Of a stretch of DNA of 64,000 nucleotides, positions 13,483 to 18,181 are shown piece by piece; position 1 is the first letter of the stretch; each line of letters opens with the position of its first letter. The position numbers and the translations under genes were made by a program. The notes under the pieces are model-generated. The model was not told the origin of the DNA. It worked only from the letters and a program-made list of their open reading frames with translations, and searched no databases. Origin of the DNA: an uncultured cyanobacterium (GTDB lineage: Bacteria; Cyanobacteriota; Cyanobacteriia; CAKZMO01); contig CAVRCJ010000003.1 in the NCBI GenBank assembly GCA_963719515.1, positions 640,001 to 704,000 of the forward strand. Direction: 5' to 3'.

Positions 13483-13800
13483 GGCCCTCACCCCCGGCCC
13501 CTCTCTCAACGCTGATACCGCTGGCGAATTTCATGTCTTGTTACATCTCGGCTATTTCCTGCCCCGGAGAAGGCCCCCTAAATCCCCCAATTCTGGGGGA
13601 CTTCAGAGAGGTTAGAACTCCTTAAAGTCAATAGCCGCGAATAGTATGGCCACTGCTCCGGTTCCCCCAGAATTGGGGGTTAGGGGGCCTCGAAGGCGTA
13701 CAGCTCGATTACGAAATATTTCGCCAGTGGTATCAACGCTGGGAGAGGGGAGTCTGATTCCCTCCCCTCGGAATTGAGGGAAGGGCTAGGGATGAGAGCC
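13483..13800. repeat. REP-like palindromic element interrupted by a MITE-like insert
   Basis: GGCCCTCACCCCCGGCCCCTCTCTC...GGGAGAGGGG...CTCCCCTC...GGGAAGGGCTAGGGATGAGAGCC arms. Confidence 0.7.
13514..13734. mobile_element. 221-bp MITE-like insertion with 15-bp TIRs and 6-bp target duplication
   Basis: GATACCGCTGGCGAA / TTCGCCAGTGGTATC (14/15 inverted match); AACGCT at 13508-13513 and 13735-13740; inner palindrome AGGCCCCCTAAATCCCCCAATTCTGGGGGA..TCCCCCAGAATTGGGGGTTAGGGGGCCT. Confidence 0.75.
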
Positions 13801-13941
13801 TCCCATGGCGCTAAACGGTTACCAGGGGAAACGCCTAGACGAGGTTTATTCGTCAGGGGTCTATAATTTGAGCAGATAAGGATGGCTCGCTAGAGTAATG
13901 AAGAAAGGGCTGGCCTCAGAAGAAGGTAAAACTTAAGGCCT

Positions 13942-14337
13942 ATGGAACCGCTCCCTATGATTCAAATTACCTTCGGACTCAGCAACGCCGACGAGGGCGA
14001 TCGCCTCCGGTTTTCCAAGCAGGTGCTGCCAGAGCTGCGGGACTTGGACGAAGTGCAGCGGGCCGACCGCACCGAGGTGATGGCGGCGGAAGACGGCGTC
14101 AAGGGCTTTGAAACCCTGCTGGGCTTTTTGACGGCGGAGGTGACGCGGGAGAGCCTAACGGAATTCCTCAAATGGATGGGCGATCGCTTTGCGGATAAGA
14201 CCCTGAAGGTGGCGGTTAAAGTAGGGGAGAAGGAAATCGAGCTAGAGGCGACGAGCCGCAAAGAGCTGGATGACCTGGAGCAGCGGGCCACCCGGCTGCT
14301 GGCGGCAATGGATACCGGCAGTTCCGAAGCCTCGTAG
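13942..14337 (+). CDS. small protein, EACC1-like effector-associated constant component
   Basis: 131 aa, ELRDLDEV..GVKG + hydrophobic helix + VKVGEKEIEL; directly upstream of a caspase gene; family call from recalled pattern, not a search. Confidence 0.55.
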   Translation: MEPLPMIQITFGLSNADEGDRLRFSKQVLPELRDLDEVQRADRTEVMAAEDGVKGFETLLGFLTAEVTRESLTEFLKWMGDRFADKTLKVAVKVGEKEIELEATSRKELDDLEQRATRLLAAMDTGSSEAS

Positions 14338-14383
14338 GGTGGGTCCTGACCCACCACCAACCCGTTAGATACCCACCAAATCT

Positions 14384-16498
14384 GTGCCCAGAAAATTAGC
14401 CCTATTGATCGGCGTCAGCGACTATGGCGAGGGATTTGATCCCTTAAGTGCTCCCGTCAAAGACGTTGCCGCCCTGCAGCGGGTGCTGGCAAATCCCGAG
14501 ATGGGTCACTTTGACGAAGTCAAAACCCTGACTAACCCTGGCTTGGTAGAAATGCGGCGGGAAATTGGCACCCTGTTTTCCACCTCCCAAAAAGACGACC
14601 TGGTGCTGCTGTTCTTCTCCGGCCACGGCGTCACCGATGACGACTATCGGCTGTACCTGACCACAAAGGCATCCGCCAAAGATACGTTTAAGTTCGACTC
14701 CTTAGAGGCCAGCTACATCCAAAACTTTTCCGACAGCGCTTGCGCCAAGCGGCAAGTGATTATTTTGGACTGCTGCTACAGCGGCGCGTTTGCCGGGGGG
14801 TGGCAGCCCAAGGGGGCGGAGGTAAAGCTGGAGCTAGAGCGGGAGCTGGGCAAGGAGGGGCGGGTAGTGTTGACGTCGTCCTCTTCGACGCAGGTGTCGT
14901 TTCAGCAGGAGGATGGGGAGCTATCGCTGTATACCCAGTATTTGGTGGAGGGAATTGAGACGGGGGCGGCGGATAAGGACAAGGATGGGGCGATTCGGGT
15001 GCGGGAGCTGCACGAGTACGCGAAGCGGAAGGTGCAGGAGGTGAAGCCGAAGCTGAAGCCGGACATTATTGTGGCGGATGATGAGGGCTATGATATTGTG
15101 CTGAGCCGGGTGAAGCTGGATGCAGCGCTGCGATTTCGGCGGGAGGTGGAGAAGCGGGTTGACCATGAGCGTGGGGAGATTTTAGATATTGACCAGGAGA
15201 CGCTGCAGGTGAAGGCGCAGCGTCTAAATTTGCCCGCTGAGAAGGTCAAGGAAATTATCGACAGCGTACTGGAACCATCGCGGCGCAGGTTGCGGAATTT
15301 GGAGCGGTATCGGCAGAAGTACGAAGAGTATGCCGAGCGGGGCTATCCGTTGAGCGAGCGGGTAATGGAGAGCCTGCGGGACTGGCAGCAGGAGGTGCTG
15401 GGGCTAGAGGACAACGATGTTGCAGGGATTCAGCGGCAAGCTCACCAGCGATATGCGCGAAGTGAACAGGTTAAGGAAGAAGTTGATAATTCCAATTTCC
15501 TCACTTCTCTGACAGCAGATGAGGCAGCGGGAAGACGGCCCACGGCTCCGCCTCAAGTTGATACGGCTTACAAATTTGAGCAGATACTACCTGAACCAAA
15601 TACAACCGACAAACAAGGCAGGCTTGAACAACCGCTGACCACTTTCAGCTTTCAGACCGCTAGAATCACAGGCTGTCAGAAGCAGGGAGGGTTCCTTGGC
15701 GTAGGCGGTGAAGTTGTCTGCGATATTAGACGCGAAACGAAGACAGCACAGGGATTTGTTGAGGGCTTGGGCAACGGCGCGACGCTGGAACTAGTGCAGA
15801 TTCCGGCTGGGCGATTTGTAATGGGCTCGCCAGCAAAAGAGGCCACCTACGGTGATGAGAAGCCTCAGCACGCGGTTAGAGTGCCGCCATTTCTCATAGG
15901 CAAGTTCGTGGTGACTCAGGCTCAATGTGAGGCTGTGATGGGTACTAATCCAGCAGTCCAATACAATGCTGACCATTTTGTAGCGCCTGATAAACCCGTT
16001 GTGGGCGTGAGCTGGAATGACGCGATCGCTTTTTGCGAAAAGCTGTCTCAGCAGACTGGTCGAATGTATCGATTGCCGAGTGAGGCGCAATGGGAGTATG
16101 CCTGCCGGGCTGGAACCGAGACGCCGTTCTACTTTGGAGAGACGCTGACAGTGGCGATCGCAAACTATGACGCTAGCCAAACTTACGGCAGCGGACCAAA
16201 AGGTGAATATCTAAAAAAGACAAAGGCGGTAGGATCTTTCCCTACCAACGCCTTTGGCCTGTTTGATATGCATGGCAATGTCTGGGAATGGTGCCAAGAC
16301 CACTGGCATGGAAACTATAGGGGCGCACCCGCTGATGGAAGCGCCTGGATCGCAGGTGGAGACAGCGATAAACGTGTTCTACGCGGCGGTTCCTGGTTCA
16401 ATCTTCCGATCTTTTGCCGTTCGGCGAATCGGAACAGGAACGCCCCCGGCTACCTCGGCTACGGGATGGGTTTCCGGGTGTGTGTGGCGTCGGCGTGA
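14384..16498 (+). CDS. caspase-family (peptidase C14) protease fused to a C-terminal FGE-sulfatase/CLec domain; DGR target protein
   Basis: ALLIGVSDY, FSGHG and LDCCYSG dyad; YRLPSEAQWEYACRAG, NAFGLFDMHGNVWEWC, RVLRGGSW..GFRV. Confidence 0.92.
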   Translation: MPRKLALLIGVSDYGEGFDPLSAPVKDVAALQRVLANPEMGHFDEVKTLTNPGLVEMRREIGTLFSTSQKDDLVLLFFSGHGVTDDDYRLYLTTKASAKDTFKFDSLEASYIQNFSDSACAKRQVIILDCCYSGAFAGGWQPKGAEVKLELERELGKEGRVVLTSSSSTQVSFQQEDGELSLYTQYLVEGIETGAADKDKDGAIRVRELHEYAKRKVQEVKPKLKPDIIVADDEGYDIVLSRVKLDAALRFRREVEKRVDHERGEILDIDQETLQVKAQRLNLPAEKVKEIIDSVLEPSRRRLRNLERYRQKYEEYAERGYPLSERVMESLRDWQQEVLGLEDNDVAGIQRQAHQRYARSEQVKEEVDNSNFLTSLTADEAAGRRPTAPPQVDTAYKFEQILPEPNTTDKQGRLEQPLTTFSFQTARITGCQKQGGFLGVGGEVVCDIRRETKTAQGFVEGLGNGATLELVQIPAGRFVMGSPAKEATYGDEKPQHAVRVPPFLIGKFVVTQAQCEAVMGTNPAVQYNADHFVAPDKPVVGVSWNDAIAFCEKLSQQTGRMYRLPSEAQWEYACRAGTETPFYFGETLTVAIANYDASQTYGSGPKGEYLKKTKAVGSFPTNAFGLFDMHGNVWEWCQDHWHGNYRGAPADGSAWIAGGDSDKRVLRGGSWFNLPIFCRSANRNRNAPGYLGYGMGFRVCVASA

Positions 16499-16499
16499 G
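16381..16499 (+). repeat. DGR variable repeat (VR)
   Basis: 119-nt ungapped match to 16664-16782 with 17 mismatches, 12 at TR adenines; forms the last 39 codons of the CDS. Confidence 0.92.
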
Positions 16500-16663
16500 G
16501 ACCTTGCCCTTTGCGCCTTTTCCCTCTTGCCCTCTGTTCCGCACTTAGCGCGGCGAAAAATTTTTCCTTTGGTACTACCTGACCGCGTTTGTAACGAACG
16601 AAGCAACATTAGCCCCCTGCCACCGATGGGCATGGTATATCCCTATGTGGGGCAGGCATTAAA

Positions 16664-16782
16664 ACGCGGCGGTTCCTGGTACAACCATCCGATCAATTGC
16701 CGTTCGGCGAATCGGAACAGGAACACCCCCGGCAACATCAACAACAATGTGGGGTTCCGGGTGTGTGCGGCGTCGGCGTGAG
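16664..16782 (+). ncRNA. DGR template repeat (TR)
   Basis: AAC/AAT-rich copy of the VR (TACAACCAT, ATCAAT, GGCAACATCAACAACAAT) outside any credible CDS. Confidence 0.9.
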
Positions 16783-16930
16783 CACTCCCAACGGCCAGAA
16801 TCGGTAGAAGGGATTCTATCGAGCGTGTGACTGGGAGTCCAGACCTGCTCCGGCGAGGGCAGAAATGCTTTCCGAAAATAAAACAGGGCCAGGTCATTGG
16901 TAGGGAAACCGAAGATTATCTGGCCCCCCA
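16783..16930 (+). ncRNA. putative structured 3' spacer of the DGR RNA
   Basis: Non-coding and hairpin-rich (ACTCCCA..TGGGAGT, TCGGTAGAA..TTCTATCGA, GGGCCAGG..TCTGGCCC); lies where the TR-RT spacer normally is. Confidence 0.5.
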
Positions 16931-17093
16931 GCTAGACAGACCCTAGATCCCTGGAATCTGGTAAGGCTTCGCAAAGCGTCATCCTTGGCCGCTCAGGTAT
17001 CACCGTTGCCCCGTGAGATGTTACCACCGACAGTTGAAGTCTCGCCGCCGACAGATAAACTCTTTCGGGCGAAACGACGGTTAGCGGCGTAGA

Positions 17094-17204
17094 GGCAATC
17101 GCTGCCTAGCCGACGACGAGCGCCTGGCACAGATGCAGCAAGAGAAGGAGGTGCTGTTGGCGAAACTCCGCTCCCTCGGCATCAACCCAGAAGAGCTGCA
17201 ATAG
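17094..17204 (+). pseudogene. orphan C-terminal fragment resembling the tail of cyanobacterial Uma2-family endonucleases
   Basis: GNRCLADDERLAQMQQEKEVLLAKLRSLGINPEELQ* with an in-frame stop just upstream. Confidence 0.55.
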
Positions 17205-17232: not shown

Positions 17233-17583
17233 TTACCGGATAGGTCGCTGCTGCACCAGGTAGCTGAGCACCTGACCGTGGGCCGGGGTAATATGGATGC
17301 CGCGATCGCCAATGGTAATCATCGGAGTCCAGTAGTGGCGCTCCACGTAATCCAGCAGGTGCAGGCGGGCTATAGCGTCCTGCACGCCGACCGGGGAGCC
17401 AATCAAGAGGTGCCGTAAGTGCTCGCATCCTGGCGCGGGGGATGGTTCTACCAACGTGGGGATATGAGGATCGGCTTCCATAGGCGAATCTAGCCGTGCG
17501 GCGCGGTCTGCCGCGAGCTGTTGGCGTACGGCGAGCTGGGCAGCCTCTTGAACCAAGGGCAGCCGAGGATATTGGATTGTCAT
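17233..17583 (-). CDS. small hypothetical protein, HxxIGSP family copy 1 (start MTIQYP at 17583)
   Basis: LRHLLIGSP..AIARLHLLDYVERHYWT..GIHITPAHGQVLSYL shared with 46166-46450 and 57812-58243; GGAG SD. Confidence 0.75.
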   Translation of the reverse strand: MTIQYPRLPLVQEAAQLAVRQQLAADRAARLDSPMEADPHIPTLVEPSPAPGCEHLRHLLIGSPVGVQDAIARLHLLDYVERHYWTPMITIGDRGIHITPAHGQVLSYLVQQRPIR

Positions 17584-17772
17584 GAGGGACTCCATTTGTG
17601 TTGTTTTGGAGTCCCCCAAAGAATCTGGACATTCCAGACGTGATAAGGGCTCGGTATGACTCAGGTACAATCGCACAAGGTCATCCAAACAGCTTGCTCT
17701 GTTCTGGTGGCTCAGGGGCTGCATGTTGTTCGTAGCAACATGCGGCTCCGCCAGACCGACTCTTTGGGAGAC
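17584..17772 (-). ncRNA. structured leader RNA, copy 1
   Basis: 15-bp closing stem 17758-17772 / 17611-17625 with two G-U pairs; internal hairpins; alternative 9-bp SD-sequestering hairpin 17586-17615. Confidence 0.6.
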
Positions 17773-17887
17773 TAGAACCATGAGGACCACGGCTCATAGC
17801 TCACTAAGGTAGATCATTTATGCGCTGATGGCAAGGGGCACGTAGCGTTTTTAGCGAGGGGGCTGGCTGGCGAGGGCGGCGGGATAA

Positions 17888-18181
17888 GCGATCGCCATTC
17901 TCCAACGAGTGCTAATTACTCTCGAACAAGCGATCGCCACTCTCCAGTGAGTCATTGCCACTCTCGCACGGATGATCATCACTCTCCCACGAGCGATCGC
18001 TAGTCTCCAACGAGTGGGCATTACTCTCGCAGGAGCGATCGCCACTCTCTGCCAAGCGATTGCCACGTTCCGACGAGTCATTATGGCTCTCGCACGAGTA
18101 ATCGCCACACTTCCACGAGCAATGGCCACGCTCTGACGAGTGATCAGGACTCTCACACGAGCGATCGCCAGTCTCCTACAG
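17888..18181. repeat. tandem array of 14 degenerate 21-bp units
   Basis: Exact 21-bp period with no indels; consensus about GCGATCGCCACTCTCCNACGA. Confidence 0.9.

Follow-up and report, generated by a model that had tools for sequence, protein, structure and literature searches.

We consider it probable that the locus described here is a clade-5 cyanobacterial DGR minus avd and RT, an instance of a recurrent compact and non-autonomous form that is served in trans by an intermittent helper, and that this copy is helperless and dormant. The window is the whole stretch of DNA that was analyzed, 64,000 nucleotides from an uncultured cyanobacterium; its source genome (G000) is a 5.28-Mb assembly in 21 contigs that is 100% complete, a figure that counts marker genes only. 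In DGRs, RT-Avd binds the spacer, makes mutagenized cDNA and homes at the IMH.

Under the favored reading, avd and RT would have been lost and the target gene retained together with a leader-TR-spacer RNA module, which may be transcribed from its own promoter, as the literature has shown for Trichodesmium. RT-Avd encoded by another, complete DGR of the cell would bind the spacer and produce adenine-mutagenized cDNA, a trans step to which comparative patterns point; with this cDNA the neighboring VR, at the CLec tip of a caspase sensor, would be rewritten. Such a partner DGR could reside on the chromosome or on a plasmid and may come and go; as there is no partner in G000, the cassette would currently be dormant and drifting, to be reawakened only upon the arrival of a compatible RT. 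Experimentally, avd, TR and RT do function in trans, as stated in the available part of PMC5758913.

Target gene and organization of the cassette

The features of the locus are as follows.

13942..14337, + strand: 131-aa small gene directly 5′ of the target (ORF call)
14384..16498, + strand: DGR target gene, 704 aa, with an N-terminal caspase of the EACC1-associated type and a C-terminal FGE-sulfatase/CLec domain (Pfam, NCBIfam)
16381..16499, + strand: variable repeat (VR), IMH and stop codon included (repeat alignment)
16500..16538, + strand: pyrimidine-rich tract 3′ of the VR, common to full and compact relatives (comparison)
16539..16553, + strand: GC hairpin downstream of the IMH with an A.C mismatch (16543/16549), then an A/T run (sequence and relatives)
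16636..16663, + strand: probable TR-RNA promoter, its −10 region without the final T of TAnnnT, and conserved GGGGCAGG leader (16649–16656)
16664..16782, + strand: template repeat (TR) with 26 adenines, present once in the genome (repeat alignment)
16783..16927, + strand: structured DGR spacer RNA, multi-helix fold, RT-14-like (Rfam, consensus pairs, covariation)
17085..17204, + strand: 39-codon gene fragment, neither avd nor RT (sequence comparison)

The target protein matches PF00656 (Peptidase_C14) over residues 3–219 and PF03781 (FGE-sulfatase) over residues 469–699, and scores 157 bits against NF047832, for which the cut-off is 140. The VR occupies the 3′ end of the gene and closes at the stop codon; the CLec domain is assigned from the PF03781 match. 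If the reading given in the available parts of PMC10907252 and PMC7517822 is followed, this protein probably acts inside the cell as a sensor in conflict or signaling, in which CLec binding would gate the caspase. The 131-aa gene has no Pfam or NCBIfam match; its placement appears typical for an EACC1-type partner, and comparable small ORFs sit before the targets in loci L033, L034, L036 and L046. The gene fragment, rather than an RT, that the preliminary description had seen after the spacer is the 39-codon piece. Its end corresponds to the C-terminal part of a different protein encoded in G000; it has no Pfam match and may be Uma2-like.

The surrounding DNA is rich in repeats. A multi-copy MITE-like repeat of 220–330 bp, up to 97% identical between copies, lies at 13483–13816 and includes a perfect 17-bp inverted repeat at 13584–13679; a dispersed repeat of ∼620 bp at 17234–17838 has at least 15 near-full copies in G000 and occurs also in genomes of the same genus; and a tandem array of period 21 nt occupies 17886–18179. 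When positions 13900–17000 were compared with four genomes of the same genus (G001–G004), the flanking genes were found to be conserved. The caspase-CLec-TR module was not found as an orthologous block in these four genomes, and it therefore looks like a variable islet.

The VR-TR repeat pair

Positions 16381–16502 and 16664–16785 form a gapless repeat at an offset of 283 that is 85% identical. The preliminary description, made from the sequence alone, had aligned VR and TR without gaps over 119 nt (16381–16499 and 16664–16782), counted 17 mismatches by hand, 12 of them at TR adenines, listed codon changes of AAC to TAC or GGC, AAT to TTT and ATC to CTC, and placed the repeats about 165 bp apart. 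A repeat search confirms the alignment, the mismatch count is reproduced exactly, the codon changes are seen in the alignment, and the gap measures 164 nt. The five non-A mismatches fall at VR positions 16402, 16465, 16466, 16471 and 16485. TR and VR thus differ mainly at TR adenines, as they do in DGRs: 12 of 26 TR adenines are changed in the VR versus 5 of the 93 remaining positions (Fisher p = 3e-6). The window VR was written from the adjacent TR by adenine-specific mutagenesis. The notion that the repeat is a chance partial duplication of the gene end and not a DGR product, for which only the absence of an RT speaks, is refuted by this adenine bias and by the leader, spacer and hairpin, which are conserved and common to full DGRs.

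TR, VR and spacer are each present once in the G000 assembly. In the whole genome the sole TR matching the window VR is the adjacent one, so the locus does not fit the class of remote targets that carry a VR only. Three other CLec paralogues in G000 were considered as further targets of the window TR and rejected, since they match at only 50–63 of 122 positions.

Non-coding RNA module

The cassette retains all of the non-coding parts of full DGRs of the clade, namely the pyrimidine tract, the GC hairpin (here with a mismatched stem), the leader and the spacer. The spacer, described beforehand as hairpin-rich, folds with z = −3.1, in line with that description. It matches the Rfam RT-14 RNA (RF02921; Weinberg 2017, PMC5737381, available in part) over the full length of the model (1–144 of 144), yet its 38.7 bits fall short of the gathering score, which is 48.1. 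The same holds for four compact relatives (39–47 bits); RF02921 gave no match at E ≤ 0.1 in 15 of 20 loci, and a genome search with the RT-14 model gave no match anywhere, controls included. In the G000 spacer 35 of 36 consensus pairs are intact. Over 30 related spacers, which served both to derive the structure and to score it, pairing holds in 95.5% of cells, and both sides have changed in 26 of 37 pairs; no shuffle equaled the real pairing, and slid controls were only 31–47% paired. The spacer RNA module is structurally intact in G000.

The TAnnnT −10 box is present in 48 of 77 loci and is without its final T in G000, many loci using another leader type. A promoter scan of the window cassette returned no sigma-70 site on the + strand; when the Trichodesmium TR-RNA is aligned, its start maps ∼10 nt before the leader motif. 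By a crude measure of the hairpin stem, 13 of 55 loci (G000 included) have a perfect stem of 3 bp and 7 of 55 one of 2 bp, the G000 stem having one mismatch. DNA folding of the post-VR region is not significant (z = 0.4). A short conserved palindrome of the type TCTCA-N5-TGAGA lies just 5′ of the TR leader in eight loci (L196, L197, L225, L226, L222, L037, L191 and L125); it overlaps the RT 3′ end in full DGRs and is retained in compact copies.

Absence of RT and Avd and state of the window copy

Neither PF00078 (RVT_1) nor PF22296 (bAvd) has a match in the G000 genome, tblastn of the RT and Avd proteins of relatives against G000 returned nothing below E = 0.05, and a profile of 84 RTs run against all G000 six-frame segments of at least 25 aa reached a best E of 1.2. 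The assembly holds no RT remnant and no second TR either. The earlier observation that no RT-like ORF is recognizable in the 64 kb thus extends to the whole genome; the genome-wide search for RT, avd and other TR-VR copies proposed with it found none, which on the enzyme side is what that description had expected of an inactive relic. Since the assembly is 100% complete and holds no RT, remnant, Avd or second TR, there is no partner in the genome. The locus has the spacer RNA of a complete DGR and lacks the RT gene and the Avd gene.

The window copy has five non-A mismatches, compared with 0–1 in 35 of 42 full DGRs and in 16 of 23 compact cassettes. Together with the mismatched hairpin and the weak −10 box, this suggests that the copy is dormant, each of the three marks being weak alone in that short stems, alternative leaders and frequent non-A changes occur in relatives. 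To judge from its sequence, the cassette is probably dormant at present and drift has probably begun.

It is improbable that the cassette is still active in its source organism, served by a DGR RT that is encoded on a plasmid or contig which the assembly does not include. Such activity would agree with the intact spacer fold, with a completeness figure that rests on marker genes only, with the location of related DGRs on plasmids, and with the frequent non-A changes reported for Lineage 4 DGRs in the available part of Wu 2018 (PMC5758913). However, five non-A mismatches lie in the upper tail of both the full and the compact sets, the TR departs at position 16754 from its own VR and also from the TRs of relatives, and the hairpin and −10 box are imperfect; moreover, no DGR RT was found in the three same-genus genomes searched, and no other VR in the G000 genome matches the window TR. 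Related pieces from one study (the X3 contigs) have a target about 88–92% alike, 13 differences in 210 over 16573–16782, and 4 differences plus 1 gap in 175 over 16755–16929, followed by ∼676 unlike letters; as they are separate contigs, none of them listed across the VR, they are given no weight.

Recurrence and origins of compact cassettes

A spacer-motif scan of GTDB genomes gave at least 118 matches, from which 80 loci were taken; the window aside, these correspond to 79 sites. The later part of this census excludes L072 and short-flanked rows. The preliminary description had started from the premise that an RT would be expected downstream of the TR. This premise does not hold: among the matches listed, avd-RT lies upstream of the TR in 45 of the 79 sites (between TR and target where the target is covered) and downstream of the spacer in only 2. 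The remaining sites among these matches comprise 10 partial loci, 7 compact ones, 8 without RT or upstream VR, 6 that are cut and 1 false call. The best 16 non-self matches of a TR-plus-spacer search of 400 genomes of the class consist of 10 compact, 3 full, 1 partial and 1 cut locus and 1 lone TR, and two family searches yielded five further compact cassettes. The compact VR-TR-spacer cassettes without intact avd/RT that were scored number 23, the window and 22 others. In six of them with 7–19 kb of downstream DNA no avd or RT was seen there apart from one weak 35-aa match. The spacer motif had no match in viral contigs, its clade-specific form had none in JGI metagenomes, and a protein search of JGI metagenomes returned 75 loci of 41–54% identity with no close orthologue.

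Several other arrangements occur among these loci. L037 (G029:C14:145637–145888) consists of an isolated TR and its spacer; neither VR nor avd nor RT lies close by, and no DGR RT was found in that genome. L120, L233, L236, L239 and L346 are full DGRs whose avd-RT is inverted and divergent from the TR. Direct fusion of a CLec gene to the spacer, with the separate TR lacking, is seen in L088, L104, L108 and L086 and also, ∼4 kb downstream of the TR, in L194. Recombination between VR and TR that removed everything between them would have this outcome, and would be a further route of DGR decay.

Two trees of TR plus spacer were computed. Tree 1, from which long-branch or duplicate rows were omitted (L085, L104, L109, L060, L088, L108, L086 and one L061 site), groups G000 with G056, G010, G014 and the contig-cut G011 (99/83). 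Tree 2, from which L134, L206, L192, the other L061 site, L123 and L213 were additionally omitted, has a 10-row clade (SH-aLRT 97) that comprises these five together with G461, G184, G115, G422 and G423. No member of this clade has an adjoining avd/RT, one (G011) is contig-cut, and the clade spans three families. Compact forms elsewhere on the tree arise separately, with at least 8 state changes, and some compact copies keep the last RT codons ahead of the TR (L098). G141 and G550 group with G000 in tree 1 (92/93, not starred) and not in tree 2. For the side on which avd-RT ancestrally lay in the G000 lineage, no remnant was found and the two trees disagree.

The compact spacer of G056 is 89/94 identical in its 3′ half to that of a full DGR in the same genome, and 37/56 identical in its 5′ half. 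Compared with L124/L039, this spacer (L031:6619–6777) is a mosaic, with a G000-like 5′ half and with a 3′ half and flank near-identical to the resident full DGR.

Possible activity after enzyme loss

One indication of activity after loss of the enzymes comes from genomes G141 and G550. Both carry the same deletion, located immediately beyond the spacer, by which the opening codons of avd became joined to RT residue ∼250. The flanks are 94–98% identical between the two, whereas of 26 template adenines that the pair has in common the VRs differ at 13, versus 2 of 82 other sites (p = 4e-8), and both genomes have intact DGR RTs elsewhere. The shared deletion together with adenine-specific VR divergence suggests that retrohoming in trans went on once the enzymes had been lost. 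In one genus, four species have a common VR-TR junction, with CLec regions 69–82% identical; their VRs differ at 9–15 of 19–22 adenines versus 0–3 of ∼80 other sites, and over the six pairs 36 of 43 non-A differences agree with the TR of the respective copy. Beyond the spacer the DNA of the four cannot be aligned, so avd-RT may have been located there and lost separately and recently. The VRs of G010 and G014 differ at 14 of 22 adenines versus 0 of 86 other sites, and of the 14 non-A differences between the VRs of G000 and G056, 12 are positions at which the G000 VR agrees with the G000 TR.

An intact DGR RT is present elsewhere in 12 of the 22 other compact-cassette genomes versus 74 of 401 genomes of the class, a comparison in which related genomes do not count as independent and in which many of the assemblies are in fragments; a broken DGR RT is present in 3 of the remaining genomes and none was found in 7. 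Complete related DGRs occur on plasmids, one of them conjugative (2 of 6 plasmid matches inspected). Among compact-cassette genomes the number of non-A mismatches does not differ with the presence of an intact RT (p = 0.95); G184, G014 and G555 have 0 non-A mismatches, yet no DGR RT was found in them. Compact cassettes have a median of 24 TR adenines, compared with 30 in full DGRs, and slightly more non-A mismatches (p = 0.02), the repeat ends having been trimmed differently in the two sets. The fewer adenines and extra non-A mismatches are an erosion of compact TRs. The TRs of the 23 compact cassettes also carry VR-like codons in places alongside lost adenines, which suggests VR-to-TR back-conversion or homing of cDNA into the TR.

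These observations must be weighed against a simpler account, in which the compact form is a stage of decay after repeated recent avd-RT deletions and was never served in trans, the VR differences predating the loss or arising by recombination, and the agreement of TR and VR being due to gene conversion between direct repeats ∼300 bp apart. We judge this account rather unlikely. It has in its favor that decay is common in the clade (the partial loci and several target-spacer fusions in the 79 sites, among the matches listed), that compact forms arise several times on the tree, that mismatches are unlinked to RT status, that TR adenines are eroded, and that the G000 copy is partnerless and bears marks of decay. 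However, G141 and G550 share a deletion junction and their VRs nevertheless differ at template adenines; gene conversion would remove adenine mismatches, whereas compact VRs keep 49% of TR adenines changed compared with 46% in full DGRs; a clean and recent loss would have to be assumed for every one of the nine compact copies that lie in one clade and three families; and spacer pairing is intact with compensatory changes.

Both readings offered by the preliminary description therefore survive in part. That of a non-autonomous mini-DGR borrowing RT and Avd in trans is supported for the architecture, which is present in 22 other genomes, has kept all of its RNA and cis elements, and includes orthologues that came to differ at template adenines once avd/RT had been lost in common; it is not supported for the G000 copy today, with no RT or Avd and with decay marks. 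That of a DGR frozen by deletion stands for the origin, given the avd/RT remnants in some copies, and for the decay of the G000 copy, and fails as an alternative that would exclude a distinct working architecture. Remnants together with divergence after the loss indicate that a deletion origin and a distinct working architecture are not mutually exclusive.

A wider reading, which we find plausible and hold tentatively, is that compact cassettes form a long-lived, multi-family lineage of satellites (target plus own leader-TR-spacer, no proteins) that spread and endure in the manner of non-autonomous elements and hypermutate the target they carry whenever a compatible clade-5 RT-Avd, even a non-cognate or plasmid-borne one, is present in the cell. 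One RT would then run several independent templates, such cassettes would be missed by RT-anchored surveys, and the G000 copy would be waiting without a helper.

Relation to known DGRs and implications

In the available parts of the accounts of cyanobacterial CLec/FGE-sulfatase DGRs (clade 5, Vallota-Eastman 2020, PMC7517822; Lineage 4, Wu 2018, PMC5758913), the likeness to the window locus extends to the caspase-CLec target, the 3′ VR, the AAC-rich TR, the adenine-specific changes, the GC hairpin after the IMH, here with one stem mismatch, and the same spacer RNA. Unlike the clade-5 DGRs described there, the window locus has no avd/RT at the locus or in the genome, and only 164 nt separate its TR and VR. 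In its workings it resembles a clade-5 cyanobacterial DGR, yet it is neither a complete DGR nor a VR-only remote target.

Degenerate DGR loci served in trans are already published. As far as the available texts describe them, degenerate loci in Thiohalocapsa PB-PSB1 (Dore 2024, PMC10907252) and all3226 of Nostoc PCC 7120 (PMC7517822) likewise lack the machinery and have "remnant TR-VR homology" without a nearby RT, trans activity being proposed for some; the trans cases DGR 4 and 5 (PMC10907252) use a remote TR, whereas the window locus keeps its own TR and its form recurs as a multi-family lineage. The DGR of Trichodesmium IMS101 (Pfreundt 2014, PMC4143802, available in part) has a stand-alone TR RNA of 265 nt with its own start site that can be aligned to the window leader, TR and spacer, and there too RT was lost by mutation and the VRs are gaining non-A changes; it differs in that the RT gene is present but interrupted and that 12 VR-only targets depend on a single TR. 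The literature searched yielded no account of a recurrent DGR lineage that lacks RT and bears a TR, supplements and most subscription papers lying outside that search. In an RT-anchored survey, non-adjacent targets go undetected (PMC8144416, available part); with surveys anchored on the RT gene, template-bearing cassettes without enzymes remain uncounted, and these make up 7 of the 79 spacer sites among the matches listed.

The window copy, an orphaned and probably dormant member of a recurrent non-autonomous DGR variant, is by itself of modest interest. The compact cassette as such is a natural minimal module of template plus target and offers a direct test of RT-spacer specificity. If such cassettes are served in trans, RT-Avd would be promiscuous for spacer RNAs only ∼70–80% alike, and the gain or loss of a helper could switch hypermutation of a putative immune caspase sensor on or off.
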